From the sequence record OR352941.1: a stretch of 64,000 nucleotides of DNA; one strand, 5' to 3'. A program made the translations under genes and the position numbers. This DNA comes from Escherichia phage AV111. The notes under the pieces were generated by a model. That model was not told the DNA's origin. It ran no database searches and was given only the letters and a program-made list of their open reading frames with translations. This document shows positions 1-45,330 of this stretch, one piece after another. Numbering within the stretch: the first letter of the stretch is position 1; the number at the start of each line of letters is the position of its first letter.

Positions 1-100
1 CAATAAACTCATCACGACGTTGCATGATGTCTTCACAATCCGTTTTAATTAAAATAGAAACAATAGTGGCAATTTCAGAAACGATTTCAATTTTAGTCAT
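1..100 (-). CDS. asiA: anti-sigma70 AsiA, N-terminal part (gene runs off the window edge)
   Basis: ATG at 98-100 (complement); translation MTKIEIVSEIATIVSILIKTDCEDI resembles the T4 AsiA N-terminus as recalled; position next to motA. Confidence 0.55.
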   Translation of the reverse strand, partial: MTKIEIVSEIATIVSILIKTDCEDIMQRRDEFI

Positions 101-1490: not shown

Positions 1491-2123
1491 TCACAGTACG
1501 TTAGTTACAAGGGTAATGATTTCTTTGGACACATTAGGGAAGTCAATGTAAGTATATTTACCACCGATCTTAATCTTAACATCATTTTCAAGAGAAGTAA
1601 ACAGCTTTGATTCAGTTTCTGACATGTTGTATGCAAAGATTCTAAGAGCACCATCTCGACGAATTTCGATCTGACGAATACCTAGAACTCGTTTTGCAAA
1701 TCGAACTTCTAAGTTACTACGGTTTTCACCAATTTCTTTAACTTCAACTTTATCTTTAATATTTTCAAAAACAAAGTTTGCTAATTCATGCATTTCAGGA
1801 GTAACTCCACGTGCTTTTCTGGTGTTACGTTTCTGAAGAAGTTCTGGAGCATTTTCTTGGGCAAATAGGTCTGCAGCTTTTTGGATAATATCCATTGCTT
1901 CGCCTGTTGCTATAAGTCCATCACCAGATTTTTCGACTAAACCTTTCTTAATCAATACACCAATGTTAGAGTTAACAACTGATGCATTGTATTCTGCTTC
2001 CAGAGCTTCACGGACATTGGCAGCAGTGGTGAAGTTGTTCTTAATGATATAAACCATTATTGCAGCAGTTTTTTCATTCAGAACGTTTTCAGAAGCTTTG
2101 ATGATGTAAGTAACTTTAGACAT
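1491..2123 (-). CDS. motA: middle-transcription activator MotA
   Basis: 210 aa; MSKVTYIIKAS...NSNIGVLIKKGLVEKSGDGLI closely matches T4 MotA as recalled; GGAG RBS. Confidence 0.9.
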   Translation of the reverse strand: MSKVTYIIKASENVLNEKTAAIMVYIIKNNFTTAANVREALEAEYNASVVNSNIGVLIKKGLVEKSGDGLIATGEAMDIIQKAADLFAQENAPELLQKRNTRKARGVTPEMHELANFVFENIKDKVEVKEIGENRSNLEVRFAKRVLGIRQIEIRRDGALRIFAYNMSETESKLFTSLENDVKIKIGGKYTYIDFPNVSKEIITLVTNVL

Positions 2124-2162: not shown

Positions 2163-2191
2163 ATAATATCATGTTTGAAGCACATGTAAAC
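2163..2191 (-). promoter_or_regulatory. early promoter upstream of motA (-35 GTTTAC, 17 nt, TGnTATTAT)
   Basis: plus-strand gtaaac at 2186-2191 and ataata at 2163-2168. Confidence 0.55.
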
Positions 2192-9572: not shown

Positions 9573-10673
9573 TTACGCTGTGAAGATTTTATCCCACATC
9601 GCAACAACTGCATCTCGATTATACTTCTTCCATACTGCTTCAGCACGTTTAACTCGAGCTTCGTATGTGTCAGTGAATTCTAATACAGCTTTTGTGTAAA
9701 GCGCAACTACTTCTTTCTTAGGAGTAGAGGAATCAATTTCTACACGCACAGTATCTGGGTCGTATTCGAATGTCGCATGAGGATAATCCTTAAAAACTAA
9801 CTGGATTACAGGGACACCTTTAGAAATGGCTTCAATAGAACTATTCTCTACCGTACCTGTGTCAGGACACGTATTAATAAGTGCTTTAGCTGTTTTAAGA
9901 CGTTCCATGATTTCACTGTGTGGAGCATCAATAATAACAGGATATTTAGCTGGTGGTGCCCATTTGCTTGGACAATAACCAATACCATTTTCGCCTAGTG
10001 CTTTAATTGCTTCAAGAGCAACATCAGTGCGACGCATCTTAGTGTCATAACGTTGAGCACTAATAATCAAATCAGTTGCCGGGAGAACTTCTGGCTTTTC
10101 AGACAAACAAATAACCGGGTAGTCATCAGGTTCAAATAATGGATTTTCGCGCCAGTAGTCATAATCAATTTTGTCAGTCAGACCTGAAGTCATATAACAA
10201 TATTTGCGTTCAAATTCACGGAAGGCTTTAGTAGGAGCATAGCTCTTCCCGCCGTTCTTGTGAATCTGGATAGTCTGATCCCAAATTTGAACAATACCAC
10301 GAGACACCGGTTCAAACGGCGTAGCCATAAAATTCTTATGAACTTTAGAGAGTCCAGCATCTTTAATTGCCTGAACGGTTAGTTTAGTCGGTTCCATAGT
10401 AACAACAAAATCGTATTCATGGATGCCGGCTAGTTCAACAATCTTACGAGCCATAGTATAACTCATACCTAGACTGAATTTAGTCAGATGACCAACAGGA
10501 TGATGATTAACCTTCCAATCACCAAACGTGTCATTATCAAAGCCGATATAATCAATATCAGCACCGATGGACACAAGATATTTCAACACATTTAAATGTA
10601 CTGCTTCAAGACCACCTTGTACACGGTCAGGATTAAATGGGACTGCACGAGATGGGATAAACATAACTTTCAT
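9573..10673 (-). CDS. GT-B fold glycosyltransferase-like protein; candidate DNA (hydroxymethylcytosine) glycosyl/arabinosyl-transferase
   Basis: 366 aa; C-terminal motif TGTVENSSIEAISKGVPVI resembles the GT4/GT-B donor-binding motif; lies next to rIIA where the proposed RB69 arabinosyltransferase maps (recollection). Confidence 0.55.
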   Translation of the reverse strand: MKVMFIPSRAVPFNPDRVQGGLEAVHLNVLKYLVSIGADIDYIGFDNDTFGDWKVNHHPVGHLTKFSLGMSYTMARKIVELAGIHEYDFVVTMEPTKLTVQAIKDAGLSKVHKNFMATPFEPVSRGIVQIWDQTIQIHKNGGKSYAPTKAFREFERKYCYMTSGLTDKIDYDYWRENPLFEPDDYPVICLSEKPEVLPATDLIISAQRYDTKMRRTDVALEAIKALGENGIGYCPSKWAPPAKYPVIIDAPHSEIMERLKTAKALINTCPDTGTVENSSIEAISKGVPVIQLVFKDYPHATFEYDPDTVRVEIDSSTPKKEVVALYTKAVLEFTDTYEARVKRAEAVWKKYNRDAVVAMWDKIFTA

Positions 10674-10699: not shown

Positions 10700-10717
10700 A
10701 AGCTCCCGAAGGAGCTT
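10700..10717 (-). terminator. terminator-like hairpin AAGCUCC-UUCG-GGAGCUU overlapping the HNH gene stop
   Basis: 7-bp stem, UUCG loop, U-rich tail. Confidence 0.55.
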
Positions 10718-13355: not shown

Positions 13356-13380
13356 ATTCTATCATCCGAAATCTAAAGCA
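13356..13380 (-). promoter_or_regulatory. MotA-dependent middle promoter for gene 39 (MotA box TGCTTTA, 12 nt, -10 TAGAAT)
   Basis: read from sequence; fits the T4 middle promoter pattern. Confidence 0.55.
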
Positions 13381-13384
13381 AAAA

Positions 13385-13395
13385 GGGCCGAAGCC
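13385..13395 (-). terminator. short GGC-UUCG-GCC hairpin plus U5, downstream of ORF 13397..13822
   Basis: seen in sequence; weak stem. Confidence 0.4.
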
Positions 13396-13396: not shown

Positions 13397-13822
13397 TTAT
13401 TTAAATTTAATTTTCTGAAGTGCATCAATTGCAGCCAGGCGCCCTTGTTCACTTTTAACTGTAATGACCACATCGCCTGATACGATCACCGAACCATCAA
13501 CAAATTCTATAGAGCCTTTTTTGAAATCGACAGCTGTATCTGGTTCCTGAACTTCTTCAAAGAATTTAAATTCTGCACCATAAAGCATAATATCACCTTG
13601 CATACTATGAATAGTTCGGCCATAATCGCCTACGGCTTCTACAGCAATAACCGAAACACCGTAACCAATCATCTCTTCCACAATAAAATCTTTGGACAAT
13701 AAAGTAGTATGCAGATTAGTATTAAGACGTTTACCAGTTGTATTAAGAATTCTCAAGAAATTATCTTCCTGCCCTTTGATAATACGATATTTCTTACCAA
13801 CTTCAAAACCTTTAAAAGCCAT
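13397..13822 (-). CDS. hypothetical protein (141 aa)
   Basis: ORF in track, ATG start. Confidence 0.5.
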   Translation of the reverse strand: MAFKGFEVGKKYRIIKGQEDNFLRILNTTGKRLNTNLHTTLLSKDFIVEEMIGYGVSVIAVEAVGDYGRTIHSMQGDIMLYGAEFKFFEEVQEPDTAVDFKKGSIEFVDGSVIVSGDVVITVKSEQGRLAAIDALQKIKFK

Positions 13823-19970: not shown

Positions 19971-20046
19971 ACTCTTTTTTCGTAAAATGCTTTAATTTTT
20001 TATGTGTTATAATGGTTCTGAGTTCCATCCGGTTATTCCAATTCAG

Positions 20047-23666: not shown

Positions 23667-24317
23667 GTTATTTTCCTTTCTTATGAAGTTTTCTATCATA
23701 TGTCTATAGCAGATATTAGGATAACCTGCCTTGACAGCTATTTTATTAAATTTTGTGCGCTTAGGTCTATTATTATAAACCCATAATTCATAAAGCGCAT
23801 CATAACTATTCCATATTTCTCCTCGCCTAGGATTTGGTAAACCATATCGAGGCGAATTTTTACCGCTAAATCTTCCTTTTCGGGCTTTACTCATATTAGC
23901 CTTGGCTTCATCGGATATAATTTTACCTTTATGAGCTAGACGCATTTTAGCTTTAGTTTCTTCTGGAGTCTTTTTACCTTTAATCCATGACGGCTTGCCA
24001 TATCTAGGATTATTTTCACCCGAGAAAAGAACAGAGTTTTGGATTTTAAGGGTTTCTATTAATCTACTTGTTAATTTAACACCTTTATTATATCGCATTA
24101 AATTTACAGCATAATGCAATCCTCTCACATCTGGATATATTTTAGTTAATAATCTATGAGCTATAAAATGCTCACGCGCAGTTAACTCAACAAGATTGTT
24201 TTTGCCATCTGCTCCTCCCATACATCTAGGAATTATATGATGGCGTTCTTTATATCCGCAAAGCCGCCGGCATTTAGCTTTTGTAATTAAAGCAGAGTAA
24301 ATTTTTTGGTAATTCAC
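23667..24317 (-). CDS. HNH homing endonuclease, in frame with gene 56 (no stop before 56)
   Basis: N-terminus MNYQKIY...HHIIPRCMGG..NLVELTAREH is paralogous to HNH 10716..11513; initiates at GTG 24317; the adjacent ATG at 24319 is out of frame. Confidence 0.6.
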
Positions 24318-26156: not shown

Positions 26157-26347
26157 TTACAAAGATTGCTTTGTCACCATTTATATCTGTGACTTCATAT
26201 GTAGTGCCTTCATACTGTGGAATATTCCAAATTACACCGTCATTAGCTTTTACGCTAATATGGCATTAGTGTTTTGAAACAACTTCATAATCTTCAAAAC
26301 TTGTAAAAACACTAATTTTAGAACCAGTGCAAATTGCAGTAGTCATT

Positions 26348-27007
26348 TTAACCTCGATTCATAAATGCATTAAATATTTGGTCATCAACAGAAATTTCTA
26401 ATTCAACTTCAATTGCTTCAGCCTTTTCTTCAGGTGGTAATTCGTATCCACACACTACAATTTTTTCATCGATATCAAAATATACAGAAGCAATACGATT
26501 AATGTTACTTTCAGTTAAGTCTAAATCAACATCAACATCTTTTTGACCTACGCTTAAAGGATAACTAATACGAGTTATTTTATTATCTTTAACAAAGAGT
26601 CCACCAACATACTCTGTGCTACGTTTGAAGTTTACACGTTTCCGAATTGAAAGATATGATACATCTTTACCGTGAGCTCGGCTCATAGGACATAATGAAT
26701 AGCTAGAATAAGAGATGTCAAATCCTACACCTTCAATATGAGCCAACGTGTCATGATTAAACCAATTATAATCATATGCCAAATCCATTATATTGTAATA
26801 TGTGAAAGGCACAGGATTAACATCATATGTTGTACCTTTAAAATCTGCCCAGGCAACGATTTCGTTATCTTTAACAATTACAAAAATTACACCAATATGG
26901 TATCCGTTATTATTTTCATTCGGCGTTATATTATAACATTGTGCATTAGGAAATTTACCATATTTAAATGGCGCGTTTTTGTGCATATAATAAATCATAT
27001 TATTCAC
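26348..27007 (-). CDS. hypothetical protein (219 aa)
   Basis: ORF in track. Confidence 0.5.
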   Translation of the reverse strand: MNNMIYYMHKNAPFKYGKFPNAQCYNITPNENNNGYHIGVIFVIVKDNEIVAWADFKGTTYDVNPVPFTYYNIMDLAYDYNWFNHDTLAHIEGVGFDISYSSYSLCPMSRAHGKDVSYLSIRKRVNFKRSTEYVGGLFVKDNKITRISYPLSVGQKDVDVDLDLTESNINRIASVYFDIDEKIVVCGYELPPEEKAEAIEVELEISVDDQIFNAFMNRG

Positions 27008-29274: not shown

Positions 29275-29304
29275 ATCATATCATGCCTAGAGGAAGATGT
29301 AAAC
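29275..29304 (-). promoter_or_regulatory. early promoter (-35 GTTTAC, 18 nt, -10 TATGAT) with imperfect spacer/RBS inverted repeat
   Basis: TTCCTCTAGG vs CCAAGAGGAA, 9 of 10 pairs. Confidence 0.5.
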
Positions 29305-29311
29305 CCCGAAA

Positions 29312-29327
29312 GGAGACCGAAGTCTCC
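29312..29327 (-). terminator. hairpin GGAGAC-UUCG-GUCUCC immediately downstream of gene 41
   Basis: perfect 6-bp stem, UUCG loop; short U tail. Confidence 0.5.
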
Positions 29328-29333
29328 TTTTTA

Positions 29334-30776
29334 TTAAAATTTTAACTCATTGGCTAAGCTATCTAGGTCAGCACGTGTTGCTTTGGCTTTACCTACGCGT
29401 TCCGTACGATTCACCTCTGCCTGACGCATCTGAGCACCTGCGTTTTCATTTACTGTGTTAGGTGTGTTCATGCCTTCTTGCTCAATCTCAACCCATTTCT
29501 GATTGCCTTTACGTACACCCATCAGGAATTTATTCCACTTATTCTTATCGCCGTATCGTGATTTGATTTGTTTGATAAGTTGTTGTTCAGCTTGTGCAAG
29601 TTCTTCGGTTTCAATTACAGCCAACATGAAATCTGCCGTTGCTGGTAAACCTGCTGATTCTGCGATATCACTCATGTTCATGTCTGAAGCATCCCATGCT
29701 GCACGTCCTACTTGAGCTGCAGTCCATAGAACTGTTTCAGATTCTACTGCTAATGCACGAAGTTCTTCTGCGATAGCTTTAACTAATGTGTAGCTATTTT
29801 CAGTGTAAACTCTGATACGACAAGACCCACAAATACCTAAGTAATCAACCATGATTACAGACGGCACAAAGTTCTTCTTAAGTTTTAACTCATTAAGCAA
29901 TGCACGAAATGTATTAGCATTAGCTCCACCAGTAGGATACTGTTTAACTACTAAACGTCCTAATGTGGATTTTGAACGCCATTTTTCCATCTTGGCTTTA
30001 TATTCAGCATAAGATACGTTACCATCATCGATATCATCGAGTGATACGTCAAGCATGTTTGCATCTATACGCTTAGCACAAACTTCTTCAGCCATTTCCA
30101 TGGAAATATAAAGAACATTATGACCTGTTTGAAGATAATCTGCAGCAAGTGAACAAAGGCCTAAAGATTTACCGACGTTAACACCAGCCATTAAAACGTT
30201 TAGTGTACCTGTTTCAGCACCACCTTTGGTGATTTTATTCAAAATGTTTAATTTGAACGGGACCTTACGTGCTTTATTTAGATAAGAAAGCCAGCGTGCT
30301 TCGTAGTCTTCCATCCAGTCGTGTCCAACATAACTATCGAACGAAATTGAAAGTGCTTGACGCATAATATCAGGAATAGCTCCTACGTCAGGCATTTTCT
30401 TGTTACGTTGTTCTGGAGGTAGTTCAGCATTAGACTGAATCTCAATGATTTTGGATGTAGCATTATACATCGCTTTTTGCTGGACATATTTCTCAGTTTC
30501 TTTAACCAACCATTCGTGGTCTTCAGGAGTATCAGCCAATTTTTCAATTAGGTCTGAAGTTCCTTTATATTCGGCTTCAGTTAAAGAACTGTTATCTAAA
30601 GCCACCTTTAACGCATTGATAGATGGCATTGCATTATATTCGTTAACGTGGCTCTTTATAATTTTAAAGACATTTTTTGCCGGTCCACGCTCAAAATACT
30701 CAGAATCCATATAAGGCCAGACCTTAGAAAAATAAGCCTGGTCATATACGAGATGAGACAAAATAATTTCTACCAC
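29334..30776 (-). CDS. 41: replicative DNA helicase gp41 (DnaB-like)
   Basis: 480 aa; strong match to T4 gp41 throughout as recalled. Confidence 0.95.
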   Translation of the reverse strand: MVEIILSHLVYDQAYFSKVWPYMDSEYFERGPAKNVFKIIKSHVNEYNAMPSINALKVALDNSSLTEAEYKGTSDLIEKLADTPEDHEWLVKETEKYVQQKAMYNATSKIIEIQSNAELPPEQRNKKMPDVGAIPDIMRQALSISFDSYVGHDWMEDYEARWLSYLNKARKVPFKLNILNKITKGGAETGTLNVLMAGVNVGKSLGLCSLAADYLQTGHNVLYISMEMAEEVCAKRIDANMLDVSLDDIDDGNVSYAEYKAKMEKWRSKSTLGRLVVKQYPTGGANANTFRALLNELKLKKNFVPSVIMVDYLGICGSCRIRVYTENSYTLVKAIAEELRALAVESETVLWTAAQVGRAAWDASDMNMSDIAESAGLPATADFMLAVIETEELAQAEQQLIKQIKSRYGDKNKWNKFLMGVRKGNQKWVEIEQEGMNTPNTVNENAGAQMRQAEVNRTERVGKAKATRADLDSLANELKF

Positions 30777-30785
30777 GATAACTCC

Positions 30786-31127
30786 TTAAAAGAATTTAAA
30801 TTTTTTCTTGGTTCGTTCATTAAAAGCTTGTTGTACTTGCATTGTAACACATTTTTCAACATGTGGTGCAAGTTCTGCTTTTCTGTCCTGGTCAAGAACT
30901 GCAAAGTCCATTACGATTTTACCACCAACCCAGTCTAGTTTTGTAATATAGACTATATGATGGGAACCGTCTTCAAGTGTAATCAGAATCTCTTGAATGA
31001 CATTTTCCATTGCTGAACGGATAATTTTAAGAGATTCATTAAACACTCGTTCTTTGCGAATGTCCTCCCCTTCCGAAGAAGGGGATTCATCAACGATTTC
31101 TAGATTTAAATCATCGAGATTATTCAT
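30786..31127 (-). CDS. 40: gp40-like protein
   Basis: ATG at 31127 overlaps uvsX stop (ATGAATAA); about 113 aa; synteny. Confidence 0.6.
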   Translation of the reverse strand: MNNLDDLNLEIVDESPSSEGEDIRKERVFNESLKIIRSAMENVIQEILITLEDGSHHIVYITKLDWVGGKIVMDFAVLDQDRKAELAPHVEKCVTMQVQQAFNERTKKKFKFF

Positions 31128-32292
31128 CGAAATCTTCCATTTCGTCAAGGTCGTTTTCAATATCTGCTGCAGACGGAGCATCAGAAGTTTTAACCGGAAC
31201 TTTAGTTGTTGCTTTGCAATTAATAAGGTCATTAACAGCGTCATCAACTTCTTTAATAGAAGAGATAGCACCTAGTTTATATTTAGTTTCAATTGCATCT
31301 CGGAAAGGCTTATGTTTAAACAACGGCCCCCAGAATTCTACACAATCAGTAGCTTTAGCACGCCATGATTTCTCTTCACGAATCATTTCGCCTGTTTCTT
31401 CGTCAAGGAATTCGCGAGCATACCAACCGGCTTTAGGCTTAACCACAAAACCGATTTCAGTTGCCATTTCTAGCAAGCCGCTGAATGGGTCGATACCACC
31501 ATCAAAATTAACCGTGATCGGGAAAGTAGATTTCTCTTTAACTGTACGAGATTTTTCTGCTTTCAACGTGAAGTCATAACCGGTCAATTCTGTACCTTCT
31601 TTAACCTGACGTTTAGAGATAAAAAATACCGTGTTGGCAGAATAAAGAATACCTGTACCACCACCCATAATCTCTTTAGGATATAGTCCGCCGATTTCCA
31701 TTGCTGTATGGTTGATTGCAACACATGGAATATCTTTAATAGTCAGATAAGGAGTCACAATGCGGAACAGAGATTTAAGTGCCTTAGCACGAGACATATC
31801 ACCTACAACTTTCTCGTTCAACGCATCTTCGGTTTCTTTCTTAGATGCAGTATTACCGATTGAATCGATAAAGATAATAACTTTATCACCGCGTTCAATC
31901 GCGTCAAGCTGATTAGTCATATCAACTTTAAGTTGTTCGACAGATTGAATCGGAGTATGAACTACACGGTCTAAATCAACACCCATTGAACGAAAATAAG
32001 ATTCTGAAGCACCAAATTCTGAATCATAGAACAAACAAATTGCATCTTTATATTTCTTCATATATGCTGCAACCATGGTCAGTCCAAACAACGTTTTAAA
32101 GTGTTTAGAAGGAGCAGCAAAAATAGTCAAGCCTGATTGCAATCCTGCATTCAGAGCACCACCTAGTGCAATATTCAACATCGGAATACGAGTAGGGACT
32201 TCATCACGATTATTAAACAGCTTAGACTTAGTCAAGTCTGCAGTCATTTTAGAAGTAGAAGCTTTAATCAGACGAGATTTTAAATCAGACAT
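31120..32292 (-). CDS. uvsX: UvsX recombinase (RecA-like)
   Basis: 390 aa; matches T4 UvsX length and N-terminus. Confidence 0.95.
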   Translation of the reverse strand: MSDLKSRLIKASTSKMTADLTKSKLFNNRDEVPTRIPMLNIALGGALNAGLQSGLTIFAAPSKHFKTLFGLTMVAAYMKKYKDAICLFYDSEFGASESYFRSMGVDLDRVVHTPIQSVEQLKVDMTNQLDAIERGDKVIIFIDSIGNTASKKETEDALNEKVVGDMSRAKALKSLFRIVTPYLTIKDIPCVAINHTAMEIGGLYPKEIMGGGTGILYSANTVFFISKRQVKEGTELTGYDFTLKAEKSRTVKEKSTFPITVNFDGGIDPFSGLLEMATEIGFVVKPKAGWYAREFLDEETGEMIREEKSWRAKATDCVEFWGPLFKHKPFRDAIETKYKLGAISSIKEVDDAVNDLINCKATTKVPVKTSDAPSAADIENDLDEMEDFDE

Positions 32293-32345
32293 TGTATTTT
32301 TCCATAGGCATCATTATATTTTACTCATGTTTAAAAGATAAGATG

Positions 32346-32370
32346 ATTATATACTAAGAGTTATACAGCA
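32346..32370 (-). promoter_or_regulatory. middle-type promoter upstream of uvsX (MotA-like box TGCTGTA, 12 nt, -10 TATAAT)
   Basis: read from sequence; box deviates from TGCTT by one base. Confidence 0.45.
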
Positions 32371-32390
32371 TTTAAAACTTTAAATGGCTC

Positions 32391-32939
32391 TTAACGAGCC
32401 CATTTAATGATTTCTGTAATCAAATTATTACGTTCGCTTGCATTAAATCCTATAACTTTGTTAGAACCATCATGATTAAGTAATTGATACGTTTGGATTT
32501 TGTTATGAATTGCAAACTCTTCAAAATGTGAAATGACTGTATTAAAACCGAATGAAGACAAAGTAATAAGGTCGTCTTCAAAACTTTCAGACATTTCGTT
32601 ACGTGTTAAAATAATTGTGAACACATCATGGTTTTGGCAAAGACGAACATAATCCTGTTCATAAACGTCAAGAACCGAGTCCGCATCTTGTCGAATACGT
32701 CCATAAACCCAGTTACTAATATATCCACGGTCTAACAGATAAATCTTAGTAGGGTCTAAATAATTCAACATCGTTTCGAAACAGCCAACTTCATTTCGAG
32801 ACTTAACATCGAAACGTCCATCAACTGTTCGTTTAGGGAAATCAATCTTTACATATCTTTCACTAATTTCCATTATGTCATTAATGAAAGTTGTTTTACC
32901 AGCATTATCTGGGCCATCTACTAAAATAATTTTAGCCAT
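32391..32939 (-). CDS. P-loop kinase-like protein (182 aa)
   Basis: Walker A DGPDNAGKTT at the N-terminus; sits where T4 has beta-gt. Confidence 0.55.
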   Translation of the reverse strand: MAKIILVDGPDNAGKTTFINDIMEISERYVKIDFPKRTVDGRFDVKSRNEVGCFETMLNYLDPTKIYLLDRGYISNWVYGRIRQDADSVLDVYEQDYVRLCQNHDVFTIILTRNEMSESFEDDLITLSSFGFNTVISHFEEFAIHNKIQTYQLLNHDGSNKVIGFNASERNNLITEIIKWAR

Positions 32940-32940
32940 T

Positions 32941-33840
32941 TTATTCCTCGATTACGACATCTTCATATTTAGGTATATTATACGGCGAAGAAATTAAAGC
33001 GTTAAAGTAGATGAACTCACCAAGACCTGGATGGAATACTTCTTCAGGATTTTCGAAATATTGAATCTTCGGACGTCCTTTAAGAATTTGATAGTACTCA
33101 GTTTTAGTTGGATTAAAAATTCGAATCAGCGCTTCTTCAGGATACTTATTTCTGTCGAAACTATTATTTGGATCAGTTATATAAAGCGGTTGACCTAATT
33201 GAATTGCGCATTCAACCACTTGTTCAAAACGATAGCATGGGTCACTAATTCGAAATGGATGAAAAATACCATCTAGATGAATAGGAGCCAAATCACCTAC
33301 AAGACGCTGCATGACGGAAGGACGTATAACTTTCTGCGTTACGATAATCTTATTACCATCTGCACCTGCGTTAACCAGCACTTCTTTTTGACGTTCATTC
33401 AACACAGTAGTTTGAAGTGAACGATTAACAGACAACATGTCGGTTTTTAAGAATTCATCAATATAAAAACGTGGTTTATTAGGGTCTGCAGTGATATTGA
33501 AATTGAATTCTACATCAAAAGCGCCGTCATATCCAGTGATATCTGTGATTAGAAAATCGCAATCATAATAAGCAATTAATGAATCAACTACAAATTCATT
33601 TTCAGACCAGAAATATTTACGAGTGTTATACGCGTTATCTTTATACCATAATGGAACAAACTTAAATTCTGGAAAAAGACGTTCGCATTCTTTAATATCA
33701 GATGCATTACGTGGATATGTAATCACATCACCCGGATTAGCACGGTGCAAATGAAGTTGGAAGTTGCCATCCTTAAGGATAGCATACTGTCCAGTTTCAT
33801 AAGACCGCATACTCAAGATAGGTACGCGGAAAATAGCCAT
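32941..33840 (-). CDS. hypothetical protein (299 aa)
   Basis: ORF in track; part of the cassette between uvsX and gene 43. Confidence 0.5.
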   Translation of the reverse strand: MAIFRVPILSMRSYETGQYAILKDGNFQLHLHRANPGDVITYPRNASDIKECERLFPEFKFVPLWYKDNAYNTRKYFWSENEFVVDSLIAYYDCDFLITDITGYDGAFDVEFNFNITADPNKPRFYIDEFLKTDMLSVNRSLQTTVLNERQKEVLVNAGADGNKIIVTQKVIRPSVMQRLVGDLAPIHLDGIFHPFRISDPCYRFEQVVECAIQLGQPLYITDPNNSFDRNKYPEEALIRIFNPTKTEYYQILKGRPKIQYFENPEEVFHPGLGEFIYFNALISSPYNIPKYEDVVIEE

Positions 33841-34556
33841 TAGTCAAGGAATCCTTTAACATAATCAAAATCACGTTCAAACACATGGGCACTTACCATG
33901 GTATGAGTATAATCACCAACTTCTACACCACATTCGTTAGCGATATAATGAAGTAATTTTCCTTGGAGATAAAAATCCAACTGCATAACAACAGCACAGT
34001 TCTGAGAACGCATATGACAGTGGGTATAAAGCTTACCATCACGAATATAATAAGTCACTGAGTCAGTACATGGATATTCAAGCGTTTCGTCTGAATCAAG
34101 CAAAGCCTGATCAGAACTTTCTAGAATTTGGAACACAACTCTTCGAGAGTTAGGCTTCTCTTTAAGTTCTTTTAGAAGAGCTGGTAATTGAGCCGCAATG
34201 CGAGGACCATAGAAAGTGTTGAAGTTCGCCGGCAAAACATCTGATTTTGGTTTAGAAATAAATTTAGCGACATTAGGATATGCCTTAAACGCTTCTTCTG
34301 CGTTGGTACCACCAGAAATCATAAACTTCCAGAAGTCTTCGGCATATTCATAAGAGATGCGGTTAATACGTGGGTCGGTCATTTTGAATGATGACGGAGT
34401 GTCAACAACTACTGTCATAGACCCAATTTCATTACAACGTCCAATACGAGAATCAGTTACGAATTCCGGGTTTTCTAAAATTTCACGATTGACTGCTTTA
34501 AATGCGGTTTGAAAATCTGCGGCTTTGATATATTTCATTGTGTTATGTTTTCCCAT
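33840..34556 (-). CDS. thymidylate-synthase-family pyrimidine hydroxymethylase, divergent gp42-like
   Basis: motifs NSRR, EYPCT (catalytic Cys), YYIRDGK, HMRSQN align with T4 gp42 DSRR, FMCT, YLIRDKK, MRSND but overall identity is low. Confidence 0.65.
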   Translation of the reverse strand: MGKHNTMKYIKAADFQTAFKAVNREILENPEFVTDSRIGRCNEIGSMTVVVDTPSSFKMTDPRINRISYEYAEDFWKFMISGGTNAEEAFKAYPNVAKFISKPKSDVLPANFNTFYGPRIAAQLPALLKELKEKPNSRRVVFQILESSDQALLDSDETLEYPCTDSVTYYIRDGKLYTHCHMRSQNCAVVMQLDFYLQGKLLHYIANECGVEVGDYTHTMVSAHVFERDFDYVKGFLD

Positions 34557-34597
34557 GTTTACCTCAATACAATTATTATATACTCAATTCGTAAAGC

Positions 34598-34837
34598 TTA
34601 TTTGAATTTCTTGGCAGTGTTGATATAACGTAAAGCTTCAGCATCGATACTTCCAAGAACACTATGAAGAAATGCATCAGCGTAGTATTCCAATTGAACA
34701 GATTCTTTAATCACTTTAGCCGCTTTAGTTTCAAACAGGCCCATCAGGGCCTTTTTAAGAATTTGTTCATTAGTGTTCAGTTTCATAGTCAAAATCTCTT
34801 CATTAAGTTGGTGGTTAAAAGTTTTTCTAGAAATCAT
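34598..34837 (-). CDS. hypothetical protein (79 aa)
   Basis: ORF in track. Confidence 0.4.
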   Translation of the reverse strand: MISRKTFNHQLNEEILTMKLNTNEQILKKALMGLFETKAAKVIKESVQLEYYADAFLHSVLGSIDAEALRYINTAKKFK

Positions 34838-35994
34838 TCCGGGTACCTCAAAGCGTCATCAGAGTTAGTTATATCAATAATAGATATAGAGTTTTCTGCT
34901 AACCCGTTTTTAGATAATTGACGTTTATAATATCTTTCACAATATGTACACGTCGTCCCGCAGATTTCATTAGCACAATCGAAATCTGGATGTCTGAACC
35001 ACCTTTTTTCTAAAAAGCCATCTAACAAAGAGGTTTCAATATTTACTGTATGTGAAAACTCAGTTTCGTTTTCAAGAGTGAAAATAGTCTCTAAAGGCTT
35101 CCACAGTTCTAACAAATTACCTTCAAACTTTTCAGAAGCGTATGCTTCAAGAACTTTCAAAATGTAGTCTGTGCTACCTGTACGTCCTGAAACTTTGAAT
35201 TGAGTGATACCAATATCATTATAAAGTTTCAAATCTTGAGGACGAACAAAACGAGTTCTCAACCAGTTAAATGGGTCTGTATCACGAGCTTTAATACAGT
35301 GCTGCATAGGATATCCGTTTAAGGATTTAGCATCATCAGCTGTAACATCAGTACTATGGAAAATATAGCAAGAGTCACGATAGCTACAATGTGTTGTATA
35401 CCCTTTACCAGCATTAGAACAGAACTCATTTACAAGAACTTCAAATATTATATTGTTCTTATTGCAAAACTCTGCTGCACGCTTCAGGAAAGAAACTGAA
35501 CGGTTCTTATGAATTCCACAGCAGACCTTTTTGATATTATATTGGTCATGCAAGTATTTGATTTGAGTTACAGCATCGACATGTAGAATTGTTGAAACTT
35601 CAATCTCAATGTCTTTATTGACTTCACGAACAATTTCCATAACAACAGGGTTAGCGATAGTAATACGCCATACGCCTATTGACCAAAGATACTGAACATA
35701 ATCCTGAATAGCTTTCTTCTTCCACTCAACTAGTTCTCTTTTTGAACCAGGATTTATCGTGTTGAGTGTATAGTTAAAGCAAATACCTAATTCGTTACAA
35801 CGTTTAACGTAATCTTCTAACATCTTTTTGTCAACGTCAGGAAGCCTAAAATCAGGTCTGGCTGCTACAAAAGCCATTTCTCTTGTAGAGCCGTATACTT
35901 CGTTTATCAAGCTATTAGGATAGGTTTTATTGAGCTCTACGATTTTATCAAGAAGAGCTAAATCAAAATTCGTTCCGATTTTAAAAGTATTCAT
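34834..35994 (-). CDS. Cys-cluster protein (386 aa), possible Fe-S enzyme
   Basis: C-terminal CX4CX3CX2C cluster and an EFCSNAGKGYTTHCS segment reminiscent of the peptidase U32 signature. Confidence 0.5.
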   Translation of the reverse strand: MNTFKIGTNFDLALLDKIVELNKTYPNSLINEVYGSTREMAFVAARPDFRLPDVDKKMLEDYVKRCNELGICFNYTLNTINPGSKRELVEWKKKAIQDYVQYLWSIGVWRITIANPVVMEIVREVNKDIEIEVSTILHVDAVTQIKYLHDQYNIKKVCCGIHKNRSVSFLKRAAEFCNKNNIIFEVLVNEFCSNAGKGYTTHCSYRDSCYIFHSTDVTADDAKSLNGYPMQHCIKARDTDPFNWLRTRFVRPQDLKLYNDIGITQFKVSGRTGSTDYILKVLEAYASEKFEGNLLELWKPLETIFTLENETEFSHTVNIETSLLDGFLEKRWFRHPDFDCANEICGTTCTYCERYYKRQLSKNGLAENSISIIDITNSDDALRYPE

Positions 35995-36056
35995 TTTTTT
36001 TGCATCTCGCGTTAATTGATGCGATGGTTTTTTTTTTGCAGGTCTTACTTAAATTA

Positions 36057-36458
36057 TTATAGATTCGGTTTATATGATTTAAATGTTTCGAATTCGCCTT
36101 TATTCATAAGAGCTTTGAATTCATCAGGACGCATAGCTTTGTCGTCGATAATCCAATCATATACTGGTTTATGTGTTAGCAAATTATGGTACTTCAAACC
36201 AATGTTTTCCAAGTTCTGAATAAGACTTGGGAGAATGTCAATTGCTATACGACCAGGACCTACTGACTTCATACCACGAGCAGTGTAAAGCGTTATGGTA
36301 TGCCCTGCATCATACAGGGCATTAATGGCAGACACCATTTCGACGTCTGGTTTGAAGTTCACGTAATCACGATTGTTATTCCATTCCGTGATGCAATCAT
36401 CGACATCAAAACAAAGATTAAGCATGTTTTCTACACAGTGCATTAGATTCGTTCCCAT
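36057..36458 (-). CDS. HAD-superfamily phosphatase (133 aa)
   Basis: motif I FDVDDCIT (DxDxT), motif II TARG, motif III WIIDDK. Confidence 0.65.
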   Translation of the reverse strand: MGTNLMHCVENMLNLCFDVDDCITEWNNNRDYVNFKPDVEMVSAINALYDAGHTITLYTARGMKSVGPGRIAIDILPSLIQNLENIGLKYHNLLTHKPVYDWIIDDKAMRPDEFKALMNKGEFETFKSYKPNL

Positions 36459-38128
36459 TGATGAGTGATATCGCCACCGATTGGACGATAAGAAACACCA
36501 GTTTCTTTATCAGTTAGTACCCATTTACCAGGATTTTTTGTAATCAGAGTAGCCGTTACAGGTTCTGCTACGTCATAACTAATAGAGCCGTCTTGAAGTA
36601 CACGGCCCATGTTACGTAATTGCTTAGTCAGAAGTTCCATACCTTTATAATATGCTGCTACCGCTTTAAGTGGATTATTCTTGAAATAACCACCTAATGC
36701 AATCCAGATAATTGCTACAGCCAAATGATGATACTCGTTAAACGAACTCATCTTTCCATATTTGTAAACTAATGGATTGATGTTAATAGTCACATTACAA
36801 GTTGTTTCATCAATAGTAAACTGTCCCCAGGCCGGATTAGCATTGAATTCATCATAACCTGAAACAGCATAAAGCACTTTAGCTTCATCATACAATTTTG
36901 GCCCGTAAATCTTGGTTTCGCCAAAATATCCACGAGGGTCGATAAACTTGACTTCGCCGTTATCAGTAATCATAGTATTACTGAAGTTCGGGTCACCATG
37001 AATAACAGAGTACTGTCCCTGAGAACGGTTATGATAACGAATAAGGTGTTCTAAAGCTTGTTTCAGCATTGGCTTCAGACGTCCAATCTTAGTGTAGTTC
37101 ACATGTGTGATTTTACCAAATGAATCAATCAATGGTTGAATACTTTCACAACGATCAATAACTTTCGTATAGAATTCTTTAGTGAAATCACGACGAACAG
37201 TTTCAGGACTTACAAAATAAGTGTCTGTGCTGAATTTCAGTGCATCTAAAATTGCATCAACAATTTGTGGACGAGCAAGACTTGATTTGGATTTAATATA
37301 TTCAAATGCCGGCTTACCTTTAATGCGTTCCATTTCAAAGTTATTTTCATTAACAGAAACTAACTGAGGAACTGAATCTGATTTCACTTTAAGATACCAC
37401 GAAATCTCATCTTTCTGAAGAGCTCGACCCTGTTCGGTTAATGCGAATTTAGTTACAGTTTCTTCACCAATTTCAACTGCATTAAAACTACGATTAAGTT
37501 CACGAACTTCATGAGCTTTTTCAAGTTTAGGCATATCACCTAAATCAATTAGATTCATAAGCTCTGATTTATTGAATGCGCTGCCGTAAAGGAATTCTAC
37601 GAAATCACGTCCTTTGCAGTATTCATGAATTTCCTCATCGGTAGAACCCATATAGAATTCCCAGTCTTTGAACTGATAAATTCCTACAACATTACCACCT
37701 GTTGAACCTACGTTAGTGATATTTTCACCGTCGAAATTATATCGACATTCATCACCCTTAACATAGATTGCGTTAACATTCCAAGACCATGAACCAAAAT
37801 CAGGAATAATATCACACCAGTTAACAATTACGTTATGGCCGTCTAAATCTTTGTGTAATTTAGCAAGAGCATAAGCAGAACCATACGCTTCATCAACTGT
37901 ACGAATAGTCACATTGAACCCTTCTTGCTCACAATAAGCTCGAACAGTTTCAGCAAATTTTGAATGAACTACTACAATAATTTCATCTGCGCCAAGGTCA
38001 GAATAAATTGTATACAAATTGCTCAGAATAGTGTCTTGTTTATAGTTAACAAGCACCTTAGGAATATGATGCGTTATTGGATACAAACGAGTTGCCAGTC
38101 CAGCACCAAGAATAACAGCTTTTTTCAT
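36443..38128 (-). CDS. bifunctional sugar-1-phosphate nucleotidyltransferase / kinase (561 aa)
   Basis: N-terminus MKKAVILGAGLATRLYPIT (GxGTRLxPxT); C-terminal HGDPNFSN (HxDxxxxN) kinase motif. Confidence 0.7.
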   Translation of the reverse strand: MKKAVILGAGLATRLYPITHHIPKVLVNYKQDTILSNLYTIYSDLGADEIIVVVHSKFAETVRAYCEQEGFNVTIRTVDEAYGSAYALAKLHKDLDGHNVIVNWCDIIPDFGSWSWNVNAIYVKGDECRYNFDGENITNVGSTGGNVVGIYQFKDWEFYMGSTDEEIHEYCKGRDFVEFLYGSAFNKSELMNLIDLGDMPKLEKAHEVRELNRSFNAVEIGEETVTKFALTEQGRALQKDEISWYLKVKSDSVPQLVSVNENNFEMERIKGKPAFEYIKSKSSLARPQIVDAILDALKFSTDTYFVSPETVRRDFTKEFYTKVIDRCESIQPLIDSFGKITHVNYTKIGRLKPMLKQALEHLIRYHNRSQGQYSVIHGDPNFSNTMITDNGEVKFIDPRGYFGETKIYGPKLYDEAKVLYAVSGYDEFNANPAWGQFTIDETTCNVTININPLVYKYGKMSSFNEYHHLAVAIIWIALGGYFKNNPLKAVAAYYKGMELLTKQLRNMGRVLQDGSISYDVAEPVTATLITKNPGKWVLTDKETGVSYRPIGGDITHQWERI

Positions 38129-38156
38129 GTTGAAGTCCTCATTGGTAAGTAGGAGT

Positions 38157-38181
38157 ATTGTACACTATTCTAGTTAAAGCA
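38157..38181 (-). promoter_or_regulatory. MotA-type middle promoter for the nucleotidyltransferase/kinase gene (TGCTTTA, 12 nt, -10 TACAAT)
   Basis: read from sequence. Confidence 0.5.
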
Positions 38182-38313
38182 TTCATACTTTGCTTGTAGT
38201 CCAATCATAATCCATCCAATTACAAGTGTTGGAATCATTACCGGAGCCGTTAAGCTCCAGTAGATAGTCATGACAAGCATCAATAGTAAAAGTCCTATTG
38301 TTATTGCTTTCAT
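38170..38313 (-). CDS. small hydrophobic protein (47 aa)
   Basis: ATG overlaps SIS gene stop (ATGA); below ORF-track cutoff. Confidence 0.35.
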   Translation of the reverse strand: MKAITIGLLLLMLVMTIYWSLTAPVMIPTLVIGWIMIGLQAKYECFN

Positions 38314-38945
38314 TGTTCGCCTCGTAACATGGCACCTAGTGCACCGCCTGGATGGAACTTAAGGAAATCATTAGAGGTAAATCCACGTTCAGACGAAAGG
38401 TTGATAGCAAACGTATCGATAAGCGCTAACAACAATGTAGTGGACATTGTCGGAGCTAAAGAGTTCTCGTCAACTTCTACCGCGATACCGGTACAGAACG
38501 TATAATCAAAAAGAGCTTCGTATTCTTGTGGAATGTCAGGGTTACAATGTAACAGAATCTGTTTAACCTGAGGACGAATCATACGAAGATGTTTAGCAAC
38601 ACCTATCATTTCTTCAGTCTTACCAGAACGACTGATGTGAACTAATACATCATTAGGTGCAATAAATCCTGCGTCACCATGAGAATAATGCCCAGTGTTC
38701 AAGTACATACTCGGGATACCGAGTGAAGCAAATGTCTCAGAAGCTTTAGTTGCGATATTAGCATTCTTACCAACACCTGTAATAATTACCCGGCTTTCAT
38801 AATTGCTAAGTCCGGGGCGTCGAAGAGTTTCTAGAATAGCATTATAACGAGCAGGGTTTTGACTAATTACTTTGGCCATAGCGGCCAAAGAAGAAGCTTG
38901 TTTTATGATTGCGTCAATAGCGATAGTAATAGGAGTAGTTTTCAT
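38310..38945 (-). CDS. SIS-domain sugar-phosphate isomerase, KdsD/GutQ-like (arabinose-5-phosphate isomerase-like)
   Basis: ITGVGKN, HISRSGKTEE, APTMSTT, HPGGALG motifs align with the KdsD SIS domain as recalled. Confidence 0.75.
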   Translation of the reverse strand: MKTTPITIAIDAIIKQASSLAAMAKVISQNPARYNAILETLRRPGLSNYESRVIITGVGKNANIATKASETFASLGIPSMYLNTGHYSHGDAGFIAPNDVLVHISRSGKTEEMIGVAKHLRMIRPQVKQILLHCNPDIPQEYEALFDYTFCTGIAVEVDENSLAPTMSTTLLLALIDTFAINLSSERGFTSNDFLKFHPGGALGAMLRGEQ

Positions 38946-38985
38946 ATTTCTCTCATTTAATTAGTTTACCGTCCATGACATTATA

Positions 38986-41697
38986 TCAAAAATCGAACAT
39001 ATCGAACAGAGATGCTTTCTTCTCATAATCGAGTTTCGCTGCTGATGTGAATCCTTCAAGTGGTTTAATAAATGTCTTCTCAAGGAGAACAGTGTAGTCC
39101 ATCCAATGAAGTACATCGTCTTTAATTAAATCTGTGATTTCAGTACCAGAAGGCCATGCGATACATTTATCACCGAATGGGTTTCCTTCACGTAAAGGCA
39201 GAACATATACTTTTTCACCTTCTACAACTTGCGGCGCATCAATATTACCTTTGATAGCTCGGTTATATGTCAGAATTCCACGAATATGGAACGGGCATTT
39301 GGGGCCAGGGAATCCACCGACATCATATTTAGCAATGTTATTCGCAGAAGATACCGACGCGATGCTAATATAATTCAATTGACGGAATTCTTTTTCAAAC
39401 TCTTTAAAATATTCTTGTAATGATTCTTCACCTTCTTGAAGCATACGACGAATACATTCTTTAAGAGCTTTCTGTACTGCTTTAGGGGTCGAAGATTTCT
39501 GAGTCTCTAGACCCATGATTTTGAGTTTAGGCTCAGCGTAACGAGTGCCTTCCATATCCCACACGTTTAATGCATAACGTTTCTTACCAGTCCAGAATCC
39601 ACCAATACCTTTAGAACCGAGCGGAGGGCCAGCAATAGCTTCTCGGTCCATGAACATCAAATGTTGCTTATTATTCATGTATTCACACATTTCACGGAAA
39701 CCTCTATCAATAGCTGGTTCCATACGTTCACGTGCAAACTTATCTAAGAAGTCTACCCAATGGTTGGTATCACGGAATTTAGATTCACCAACCTTATCAA
39801 TAATTTTATCTGCAGATACGTAAATGGAGTCTGTATCACCATATAGAACGAAAGCTTCGCCTTCTGTACCACAAACTTCATTCAGATATTCATTAACTTT
39901 ACGTTCAATCCACTGTAAAGCCATTTGCCCAAATGTTGTGATTGCAGTTGCATTACGCAAATCGTAATAACGGAACCAAACGTTTCCAAGTGCACCATAA
40001 AGTGAGTTGATAAGCAATTTACGGTTAATCTGTGCAGTCATACCTGCAACTTCAGTACGTTGAGCTCTAAACAACATTTCATTAAGAGATTTAGCAGACA
40101 ACTTTTTAATCTTTTCTTTAATCTCATCACTGAAGTCGAAACGATAATCAACATCTAATGGTTCGTCAACAGAAAGATTAGGATTATGCAATGCCTCTTT
40201 AATTATTTCGCCATTACGTTGAGCTGCAAGCATGTAACCTTTATGTTCTTTACGTTGATTAAAGACCTTAGTGATTTCAGTTGGAACTACACCATCACGG
40301 TCTTTATAATACATCATGCCGTTAGGAGAGCAACTGTACACATCTGAAGGACGTTCAGCGATTGCGTTAATATAATCATGCAGTGGAGCTACTTTAAACG
40401 TTCCTGCTATTGTTTCAGGGCTAATATTCACTTGGCGAATAATACTTGGATACAGAGATGTAAGGTCGAAACTCATTACATATTTGTATCGATTTGGAAT
40501 AGGTTCCTTAACAAAAGCGCCAGGATAAGGTTGAACCGGGTGAGAACGACCTTGTGGAATCACCTTGTTCTGCTCTTTAAGGCTATTAAAAATAATAGCA
40601 TCCCATGTTTTAATTGGACTGAACACAGATTGAATCTGAATTTTAGCATAATAACCCATGTCCAAGCTCAAGTTAATGAACTGGCGTTTAGCATCAATTT
40701 GCAATACACGATATACGTCGATAATGTTATAAGAAATATATCGTTGGTGATTGCTTTCACGAAGCTTAGAAATAGGGCCGTCATATTTCAGTTTACCAAC
40801 GTTCAATTCAAATTCTGAAATGTAATCCAGAGAATACGACGGTTGGTTCGTGAAAGAGAACTTTTTGTAAAGGTCAATGTAATCAAGAACAGAGATACCG
40901 AACAATGTAATGATTTCACGAGAACCATACATGTTTTCGATAACTTTAACACGAGTTTTACGATGTGGTGATAAACGTTTCGCAGTAGATTCGCCAAAAA
41001 TATTCTTGATTCGGTTATACACATATGGAATATCAAATGACTCAACGTTCCATCCAGTCAAAATGACAGGAGTTTTCTGTTGCCAGAAGTTGAGATATTC
41101 CATCAACAATTCTTTTTCGTTATCGAACGGCATATAAATGATTTTATCGATAATTTCGGATGGAACTTCATCACCGCCTTGTTCTTGAAGCTTAGCAGCG
41201 ATTTCAATAGACCATTCTTCTACATTACCATATGGAGAATTCAATAGATCAAATACGTAGAACCTGTCGTCAATTGAGTCATAATGGGTGATAGCATCAA
41301 TCGGATGTTTTGCTTGTGACGGCTCAGGGAACCCATCCGGAGATGTTACTTCGATGTCGAAGTTAGCCACACGAATTTTTGTATGGTCGTATTTGATTTC
41401 ATAGTTATAAGTGTCAGACAAATACGCCAATTTGAAATCGTCCATGCCAAGTGCTTCAAGTCCGATATCTTCCATGCGTTTAATCCATTGAGACGCATCG
41501 CGCATATTAGCGAACAACTTACGAGTACACGGCTTACCGTAGATATCGAAATATTTCGTAGCCTGACTTTCTGGACAATGAGCAAACAGTGATGGTTTAT
41601 ATTCTACTTCACGAGTACGTTCACGGCCATTAGAATCGATGTAACGTTCAAAAATTGAATCACCAATCTGTTCAACCGTTAAGTAAAATTCTTTCAT
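38986..41697 (-). CDS. 43: DNA polymerase gp43 (family B), RB69-type
   Basis: 903 aa; N-terminus MKEFYLTVEQIGDSIFERYID and C-terminus LFDMFDF match the RB69 polymerase as recalled. Confidence 0.97.
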   Translation of the reverse strand: MKEFYLTVEQIGDSIFERYIDSNGRERTREVEYKPSLFAHCPESQATKYFDIYGKPCTRKLFANMRDASQWIKRMEDIGLEALGMDDFKLAYLSDTYNYEIKYDHTKIRVANFDIEVTSPDGFPEPSQAKHPIDAITHYDSIDDRFYVFDLLNSPYGNVEEWSIEIAAKLQEQGGDEVPSEIIDKIIYMPFDNEKELLMEYLNFWQQKTPVILTGWNVESFDIPYVYNRIKNIFGESTAKRLSPHRKTRVKVIENMYGSREIITLFGISVLDYIDLYKKFSFTNQPSYSLDYISEFELNVGKLKYDGPISKLRESNHQRYISYNIIDVYRVLQIDAKRQFINLSLDMGYYAKIQIQSVFSPIKTWDAIIFNSLKEQNKVIPQGRSHPVQPYPGAFVKEPIPNRYKYVMSFDLTSLYPSIIRQVNISPETIAGTFKVAPLHDYINAIAERPSDVYSCSPNGMMYYKDRDGVVPTEITKVFNQRKEHKGYMLAAQRNGEIIKEALHNPNLSVDEPLDVDYRFDFSDEIKEKIKKLSAKSLNEMLFRAQRTEVAGMTAQINRKLLINSLYGALGNVWFRYYDLRNATAITTFGQMALQWIERKVNEYLNEVCGTEGEAFVLYGDTDSIYVSADKIIDKVGESKFRDTNHWVDFLDKFARERMEPAIDRGFREMCEYMNNKQHLMFMDREAIAGPPLGSKGIGGFWTGKKRYALNVWDMEGTRYAEPKLKIMGLETQKSSTPKAVQKALKECIRRMLQEGEESLQEYFKEFEKEFRQLNYISIASVSSANNIAKYDVGGFPGPKCPFHIRGILTYNRAIKGNIDAPQVVEGEKVYVLPLREGNPFGDKCIAWPSGTEITDLIKDDVLHWMDYTVLLEKTFIKPLEGFTSAAKLDYEKKASLFDMFDF

Positions 41698-41701
41698 TTA
41701 A

Positions 41702-41725
41702 TTTCCTTTAGACGAGTTATTGTCT
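41702..41725 (-). promoter_or_regulatory. gene 43 translational operator candidate: hairpin AGAC-AAUAACUC-GUCU next to the AGGAAA RBS
   Basis: 4-bp stem with 8-nt loop directly upstream of the RBS, as described for T4 gp43 autoregulation. Confidence 0.5.
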
Positions 41726-41755
41726 TTTGTTTGTTGATGAACTTATTATACTCCA

Positions 41756-41775
41756 AATGGGACCGAAGTCCCATT
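41756..41775 (-). terminator. hairpin AAUGGGAC-UUCG-GUCCCAUU between regA and gene 43
   Basis: perfect 8-bp stem, UUCG loop; no strong U-run. Confidence 0.5.
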
Positions 41776-41778
41776 GCT

Positions 41779-42156
41779 TTAATTACCAATTGTATATTTT
41801 GCTTTCAAAGTCCAGTCATCTTTCTGTTTAAAAGAGATAACACGGAAGTTATTAGTCAGGCCAAACAGATCTTCACGAGCAGAGTCTTCAATAACAATCA
41901 ATCCCCAGTCTTCAAGCAACTGGGCAATCGAATCACGTCGCTGATAGTCTTCACCGTCAATATCAACCTGACGTCCATCCATACGCAACATTTCTTTAAA
42001 GTGGACGATGTAGTATTTACCTTGCTTTTGGAGGATATGACAGGACTGATAAAGAACTTTATCCTTGTTATTAGCGATGCCCATACGGGTCAAAGTCTCT
42101 TTGACTTTCAGAAAATCTTCGGGGTTCTTCAATTTAATTTCAATCATTTTTACCAT
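41779..42156 (-). CDS. regA: translational repressor RegA
   Basis: [25 protein letters not shown]...[11 protein letters not shown] matches T4 RegA as recalled; true start may be the ATG at 42147. Confidence 0.88.
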
Positions 42157-42713
42157 TCCAATGCTAATTTTTTAAATTGTTTTTGTTCTTTCACATTTTT
42201 TGTAACTTCTTTGAGAAACTCATCAGTGACCATGGCCTTCAGTTCTTTAAGGACTATTGGCAACTTGTTATTTTTTTCAAGGAGCCGCTTATACTCGGTA
42301 GCATCATTCATGTTGATTGTGTAACGTTTCATCAACAGTTTGATAACTAGTAACTCTGAAGTGTCTTCGACTAGTTTAGCCCATTTAGAGAATCGACGAC
42401 CACGTGGAATTGCCGCCATCATATAGTTGAAGTGCGCTTCATCACTTAATTCAGAACCGACTAAGTTCATCATGTAAACGGCTGGCATACATTCCGGGAA
42501 CTGGGATAATGAGTTCTCAACCATAAATTTTGAGTAGTCGACCTGAGCAATTGACATAGATTTCTTTTCATTAATAGCATTAATGATTTTAAAGAATTCA
42601 TTCTCAGGTTTTTCTTTAAACATGTCAGCACATTTTTGAATCGCATCAGCGTCATTAGACTTCCATGCAATTTGGTGCTCGTTAAGTTGGACGTCATCAT
42701 CAAATAAGTTCAT
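42150..42713 (-). CDS. 62: clamp loader small subunit gp62
   Basis: 187 aa; matches T4 gp62 length and sequence. Confidence 0.92.
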
Positions 42714-42714
42714 A

Positions 42715-43677: not shown

Positions 43678-43702
43678 GTAATTTTCCTCATTATCATTAA
43701 AC

Positions 43703-43720: not shown

Positions 43721-43752
43721 TAATCGTACTACATTAAACGTAAAGCTTTGAC

Positions 43753-45325: not shown

Positions 45326-45330
45326 AATTA

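Follow-up and report, generated by a model that had tools for sequence, protein, structure and literature searches.

The DNA analysed here is a 64,000-nucleotide stretch of Escherichia phage AV111 (OR352941.1), referred to below in its entirety as the window. It matches T4-type phages of the genus Mosigvirus (RB69-like) at 96–98% identity and covers the early/middle arm of the genome, which runs from asiA, arn and motA through 52, rIIB, rIIA, 39, dda, modA, 56, 61, 41 and uvsX, and continues past uvsX into a sugar-nucleotide/DNA-modification cassette and genes 43, 45, 46, 47, 55 and nrdD. Gene names were transferred from the annotation of phiC120, RB69 and T4, and the minus strand carries all named genes of the arm. 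No Rfam family matched the window at gathering thresholds. The left end and the region upstream of gene 39 contain the following features:

2..100, minus strand: first 33 codons of asiA, the gene extending beyond the left window edge
1491..2123, minus strand: motA, the activator reading the MotA box (Pfam MotA_activ 1.8e-40, MotCF 2.2e-8)
2163..2191: T4-type early promoter of motA
13356..13380, minus strand: P39-type middle promoter, consisting of a MotA box, a 12-nt spacer and a -10 element (20.9 bits)
13386..13395, minus strand: hairpin GGCTTCGGCC of the CUUCGG tetraloop type, then a T-run, abutting the MotA box

The original prediction that the window encodes MotA and, on the partial ORF at its left edge, AsiA holds on both counts. 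The motA product contains both Pfam domains and is 52% identical to T4 MotA, and the partial ORF, which represents the N-terminal 33 residues of AsiA, is 52% identical to residues 4–34 of T4 AsiA. This fragment scores 23.8 bits on Pfam AsiA, slightly below the 25-bit cut-off because the ORF is truncated. A cognate motA and a (partial) asiA are present in the same genome as the promoter-like sites described below. Within MotA, the activation half is close to that of T4 and the DNA-binding C-terminal half is weakly similar (Pfam 137 vs 34.5 bits), and the MotA-box consensus is seemingly unaltered despite this divergence. As the C-terminal half has diverged from T4, identical box specificity is an assumption made here.

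Upstream of gene 39, where a middle promoter had been placed, the minus strand reads TGCTTTA-N12-TAGAAT (13380..13356). The MotA box TGCTTTA occupies 13380..13374, the 12-nt spacer GATTTCGGATGA lies at 13373..13362, and the -10 hexamer TAGAAT (13361..13356) is preceded by TGn. With its flanking bases the box reads ttttTGCTTTA (13384..13374), in agreement with the form (a/t)(a/t)(a/t)TGCTTtA, and is centred near -30; the hexamer is a TAnnnT sequence at 12 bp from the box, where 12 ± 1 bp is expected of middle promoters. Transcription is predicted to start at about 13349, and the ATG of gene 39 (13333) follows 22 nt downstream of the element with a Shine-Dalgarno sequence in between. A sigma-70 scan of 13356..13395 detected no canonical -35 element, and the hexamer found at 17-bp spacing from the -10 is TTTTTG, with two of six matches to TTGACA. 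Sites were scored with log-odds matrices trained on the 52 promoters with a recognisable box among the 58 experimentally mapped T4 middle promoters (Hinton 2010, PMC2988021), which were taken from the T4 genome and aligned on the -10. The score of the gene 39 site compares with a median of 16.9 bits for the mapped T4 promoters.

The T4 start sites of P39, P47 and PuvsX have been mapped to 5349, 36576 and 23752, respectively (Hinton 2010, PMC2988021), and the P39 and P47 elements of the window align with mapped T4 P39 and P47. T4 P39 serves the same gene from the same position, and the two share the order of stop codon, CUUCGG hairpin, T-run, box, 12-nt spacer, -10, Shine-Dalgarno sequence and ATG. 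They differ in the box (TGCTTTA in the window, AGCTTTA in T4), in the -10 (TAGAAT with TGn, against TATAAT in T4) and in the leader, which is about 5 nt shorter in the window; moreover, T4 has a mapped start site and the window a predicted one.

In the window the upstream ORF ends with a stop codon at 13397..13399, directly followed by the hairpin, and here, in RB69 and in T4 the hairpin and then the Ts lie directly upstream of the box. At genes 39 and 47 the conserved feature could accordingly be read as an intercistronic CUUCGG hairpin with a T-run, acting as a terminator or stabilising the RNA, with the box as its T-rich tail. We consider this very improbable, given that in Karamvirus and Moonvirus gene 39 has the box, the 12-nt spacer and the -10 but not the hairpin, and that the uvsX and cassette sites described below are likewise without one. 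A terminator would also leave a conserved -10 at fixed spacing unexplained, and the two functions are in any case compatible.

A middle promoter at gene 39 is further favoured by its distribution. The site is found in at least seven genera (Mosigvirus, Tequatrovirus, Dhakavirus, Marfavirus, Karamvirus, Kanagawavirus and Moonvirus), where it scores 18.7–22.1 bits, keeps a 12-nt spacer and has its predicted start 16–21 nt before the ATG, while flanks and spacer sequences vary among the genera. The Jiaodavirus site has a 14-nt spacer. No middle-promoter site was detected upstream of gene 39 in RB49, a phage that lacks motA (Nolan et al. 2006).

Middle promoters had likewise been placed upstream of gene 47, uvsX and the nucleotidyltransferase/kinase gene of the cassette, and a site was recovered at each of these positions:

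49211..49234, minus strand: P47-type middle promoter, TGCTTTA-N11-TAGAAT (19.1 bits), aligning with mapped T4 P47
32346..32370, minus strand: uvsX middle promoter, TGCTGTA-N12-TATAAT (18.9 bits)
38157..38181, minus strand: cassette middle promoter upstream of the nucleotidyltransferase/kinase gene, TGCTTTA-N12-TACAAT (17.0 bits)

Predicted starts and start codons lie at about 49204 and 49187 for gene 47, about 32339 and 32292 for uvsX, and about 38150 and 38128 for the nucleotidyltransferase/kinase gene. The spacing between box and -10, claimed to be 11–12 nt, is 12, 11, 12 and 12 nt at genes 39, 47, uvsX and the nucleotidyltransferase/kinase gene. The consensus given for the box requires correction, since TGCTT(T/G)TA contains one T in excess and fits no site of the four; with that T removed, TGCT(T/G)TA fits each of them. 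At P47, too, the window and T4 agree in layout, from the stop codon and the CUUCGG hairpin through the T-run and the box to the spacer and the -10. T4 PuvsX lies inside segA, and the uvsX site of the window is its functional, not positional, counterpart.

In the window as a whole, a search for the simple pattern TGCTTNA-N11-13-TANNNT gave 15 matches, where dinucleotide shuffles lead one to expect 3.65 ± 1.87 (a 4-fold enrichment reached in none of 100 shuffles), and 12 of the 15 matches are on the coding strand. With the matrices and a threshold of at least 14 bits, which 41 of the 58 mapped T4 promoters clear, 29 sites were found on the minus strand and two on the plus strand, compared to 1.4 ± 1.2 in shuffles. 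By this count the minus strand exceeds the shuffles about 20-fold and the opposite strand 14-fold; many of the matrix matches fall inside genes, and some good matches in T4 are inactive as middle promoters (Hinton 2010, PMC2988021). Among the 35 sites of at least 12 bits, 11 are intergenic, with non-coding DNA making up 8% of the window (P = 6.5e-5). Around gene 39 and the cassette, neither canonical TTGACA-type (-35/-10) sigma-70 promoters nor intrinsic terminators were enriched. In sum, the window has about 30 coding-strand sites of the type predicted to be MotA-dependent.

The elements of genes 39 and 47 both read TGATAGAAT, in which TGn precedes a good -10, and TGn is found in about half of the T4 middle promoters (Hinton 2010, PMC2988021). 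It is conceivable from this that the sites are extended -10 promoters used by unmodified sigma-70 from the start of infection, independently of MotA, and that TGCTTTA is incidental to them. We regard this as improbable, though somewhat less so than the hairpin reading above. A canonical TGn is missing at the uvsX and cassette sites, and from genus to genus the box is kept at a constant 12 nt from the -10, although the spacers differ in sequence. A word count that makes no use of the T4 model points in the same direction, as GCTTT and TGCTT, together with CTTTA and CGCTT, are the top 5-mers at -35..-22 of good coding-strand -10 hexamers; TTTAC and TTACA, words of the T4 early-promoter -35, are also enriched in this zone. 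Moreover, the T4 homologues are MotA-dependent (Hinton 2010, PMC2988021). The TGn at the -10 of P39 and P47 makes some MotA-independent activity of these two possible.

T4-type early promoters use the same host polymerase and -10, with a GTTTAC -35 (plus TGn and an UP element) in place of the MotA box. We found 16 of them (GTTTAC-N17-TGnTAnnnT) on the coding strand of the window and none on the coding strand of 29304..51297, a 22-kb block that reaches from gene 47 to gene 41 and includes the cassette. The MotA-type sites would thus be the sole local promoters of this block.

We consider it very probable, on the sequence evidence above, that the element at 13356..13380 (minus strand) serves gene 39 as its middle promoter in this RB69-like phage and works by sigma appropriation as in T4. 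AsiA and MotA would be made early in infection, motA having its own early promoter here. AsiA would then remodel region 4 of the host sigma-70, so that the -35 element is not read, and MotA would contact both sigma-70 and the MotA box centred at -30, as described for T4 (Hinton 2010, PMC2988021). Region 2 of sigma would take the -10 hexamer 12 bp downstream of the MotA box, and transcription would start about 7 nt past the -10 (around 13349), giving a short leader with the Shine-Dalgarno sequence ahead of the ATG of gene 39. In middle promoters of the T4 type, the start falls 6–7 nt past the -10, requires both MotA and AsiA, and comes into use at about 1–2 min after infection. The architecture seen at gene 39 recurs at about 30 coding-strand sites, including those of gene 47, uvsX and three cassette genes. 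The sequence evidence agrees with the T4 mechanism wherever the two can be compared, and start sites, dependence on MotA and AsiA, and timing are inferred; no transcriptome, start-site or time-course data for RB69 or Mosigvirus were found in the searchable literature.

Beyond the nucleotidyltransferase/kinase promoter, the cassette and its surroundings contain these features:

36443..38128, minus strand: bifunctional sugar-1-phosphate nucleotidyltransferase/kinase of 561 aa, homologue of RB69 gp52:53, AfhE-like
38170..38313, minus strand: 47-aa membrane ORF (MKAITIGLLLL...LQAKYECFN), RB69 ORF054c
33840..34556: gene 42 homologue, 5-hydroxy-dCMP synthase (Pfam Thymidylat_synt)
34575..34598, minus strand: middle-promoter-type site of the gene 42 homologue, AGCTTTA-N11-TATAAT (16.9 bits; RB69 Pm:26264)
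32391..32939: nucleotide-kinase gene
32977..33001, minus strand: middle-promoter-type site of the nucleotide kinase, CGCTTTA-N12-TATAAT (8.7 bits; RB69 Pm:24665)
36851..36880: intragenic MotA-type site (20.0 bits)
36268..36296: intragenic MotA-type site
41745..41774, minus strand: P43-type element upstream of gene 43, with a CUUCGG hairpin then TTTGGAGTATAAT, laid out as mapped T4 P43

The cassette makes DNA with arabinosylated 5-hydroxycytosine (Lee et al. 2026, NAR, PMC13326640), and RB69 gp52:53 is a bifunctional kinase and UDP-arabinose pyrophosphorylase in the synthesis of UDP-arabinose (PMC13326640). The homologous 561-aa ORF of the window matches Pfam NTP_transferase in its N-terminal part (8.5e-10) and, weakly, kinase families in its C-terminal half. 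Neither PMC13326640 nor Thomas et al. 2018 mentions a promoter or the transcription of the arabinosylation pathway.

The box of the cassette promoter coincides with the last codons of the 47-aa membrane ORF, TGC-TTT-A(AC), which encode Cys-Phe-A(sn), and coding constraint may explain part of its conservation because of this overlap. It could even be that there is no promoter at 38157..38181, the TGCTTTA being kept for a Cys-Phe-Asn C-terminus (...YECFN) and the downstream genes being reached by read-through from gene 43, and in line with this a similar C-terminus is maintained in JS98 (NCFN) and T4 (ECIN), where a promoter is impossible. Set against this is the fact that in both T4 and JS98 the small ORF is immediately followed by the next gene, with loss of the C of the box and no -10, whereas TACAAT is invariant across four lineages in a non-coding gap at 12 nt from the box, where other non-coding bases differ. 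Outside the window, the site is kept in Serratia phage CHI14 (18.3 bits) and in Yersinia phages fHe-Yen9-01 (20.3 bits) and phiR1-RT (17.2 bits), each with TACAAT in non-coding DNA exactly 12 nt from the box and a predicted leader of 19–22 nt, so that its conservation extends to Winklervirus and Tegunavirus with the -10 in non-coding DNA. The score of the site in the window is also far above the shuffle background. A purely coding origin of the motif is therefore unlikely in our view, although it has more in its favour than the two alternatives weighed for the other sites.

Besides the nucleotidyltransferase/kinase site, the cassette contains two further gene-proximal MotA-type sites. That of the gene 42 homologue has 12 nt from its predicted start to the ATG, and that of the nucleotide kinase has its low score because of G+C at -16..-13. 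No T4-type early promoter was found within 13 kb upstream of the cassette site, which supports middle-mode expression of the cassette. The proposal that the sugar-nucleotide cassette is wired into the middle-gene programme is a reasonable inference from the conserved site, the two additional sites and the lack of early promoters between 29.3 and 51.3 kb. The first gene of the pathway, encoding Ara5P isomerase (38310..38945), begins 40 nt after gene 43 and upstream of the nucleotidyltransferase/kinase promoter; on account of this position it would be co-transcribed with gene 43 from the P43-type element.

The cassette site has no T4 counterpart. T4 P42 (start 26320) serves the T4 modification genes 42 and beta-gt from the same slot, between gene 43/imm and uvsX. 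It lies in the 5' part of the small membrane ORF, unlike the window promoter, which overlaps the last codons about 100 nt downstream. Homology between the two promoters was considered and rejected on the basis of this distance within the same small ORF, and the position in the window equivalent to T4 P42 contains no site (1.9 bits). The small ORF itself has an unannotated 49-aa homologue in T4 (NC_000866, ~26225..26375, minus strand), in the imm-42 region described as intercistronic.

CUUCGG-type hairpins lie on the minus strand just upstream of the P39 (13386..13395), P47 (~49243..49260) and P43 (41756..41775) elements, as in T4. Another is located at 10700..10717 (minus strand), after a homing-endonuclease ORF and just before the second arabinosyltransferase gene (9573..10673); the latter gene lacks a promoter-like site of its own.

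Middle promoters of RB69 were predicted by Nolan et al. 2006 (Additional file 4) with a T4-derived profile. All 13 of those in the first 50 kb map to the window at 96–100% identity and coincide with sites found here, the equivalents of the four named sites being Pm:5538 (gene 39), Pm:24034 (uvsX), Pm:29842 (nucleotidyltransferase/kinase) and Pm:40046 (gene 47). The window represents a different isolate with few substitutions; the -10 of P47, for instance, is TAAAAT in RB69 and TAGAAT here. The four placements are correct and were already known as predictions for RB69 in 2006, and our finding of them is a rediscovery.

Sigma appropriation at MotA-box promoters is among the best-understood phage regulatory mechanisms. 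With the mechanism known and the exact sites predicted for RB69 in 2006, the gain for transcription biology is small. What is added, to a modest extent, is context. When Pm:29842 was predicted (Nolan et al. 2006), the genes downstream of it had no known function; they have since been assigned to the synthesis of UDP-arabinose (PMC13326640). The sites described here suggest that this hypermodification pathway relies on MotA-type promoters, and synthesis of the sugar donor would then be timed with the replication genes. The promoter positions can be used in the annotation and engineering of RB69-like phages.

One further MotA-type site does not belong to the sense-strand set:

19984..20013, plus strand: antisense MotA-type site in the srd-modA gap (24.1 bits, the top score of the window)

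The site is directed into the 3' end of modA and stands back-to-back with the early srd promoter, whose upstream element could account for part of its conservation. An equally strong site with a different spacer is found at the corresponding place in T4 (NC_000866, 11862..11890, plus strand), where it is the top one of the early arm, and counterparts with diverged spacers occur in RB69, Dhakavirus and phage 212. The RB69 counterpart was predicted at low score as Pm:12081 on the plus strand (Nolan et al. 2006). The site does not appear in the table of mapped T4 middle promoters (Hinton 2010, PMC2988021). About 27 nt of the T4 copy, including the first transcribed bases, are common to PuvsY, the promoter of oriF. 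Identity of the site with T4 oriA was considered and rejected, since the latter maps close to soc/56, at a distance of several kb. We suggest only tentatively that, besides the known sense-strand promoters, a conserved antisense promoter in the srd-modA gap may belong to the MotA regulon of T4-type phages. Such a promoter would fire against early transcription and could silence early modA/modB/srd at the early-to-middle switch; alternatively, in view of the ~27 nt in common with T4 PuvsY, it could be an origin-type R-loop promoter. This site is possibly the only novelty of the present analysis.

Two homing-endonuclease ORFs of the window, both on the minus strand, are not found in RB69. The first (44576..45334) is placed between rpbA and gene 45. 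The second (23667..24317) lies upstream of gene 56 and has no stop codon, continuing in frame into an intact gene 56 with its own ATG (23666) to give an ORF of 390 aa. These ORFs are accompanied by the following sites:

44754..44781: MotA-type site (20.5 bits)
44538..44566: MotA-type site (17.4 bits)
23772..23801: MotA-type site (18.0 bits)

Both homing-endonuclease ORFs thus have MotA-type sites, as do the seg and mob genes of T4.
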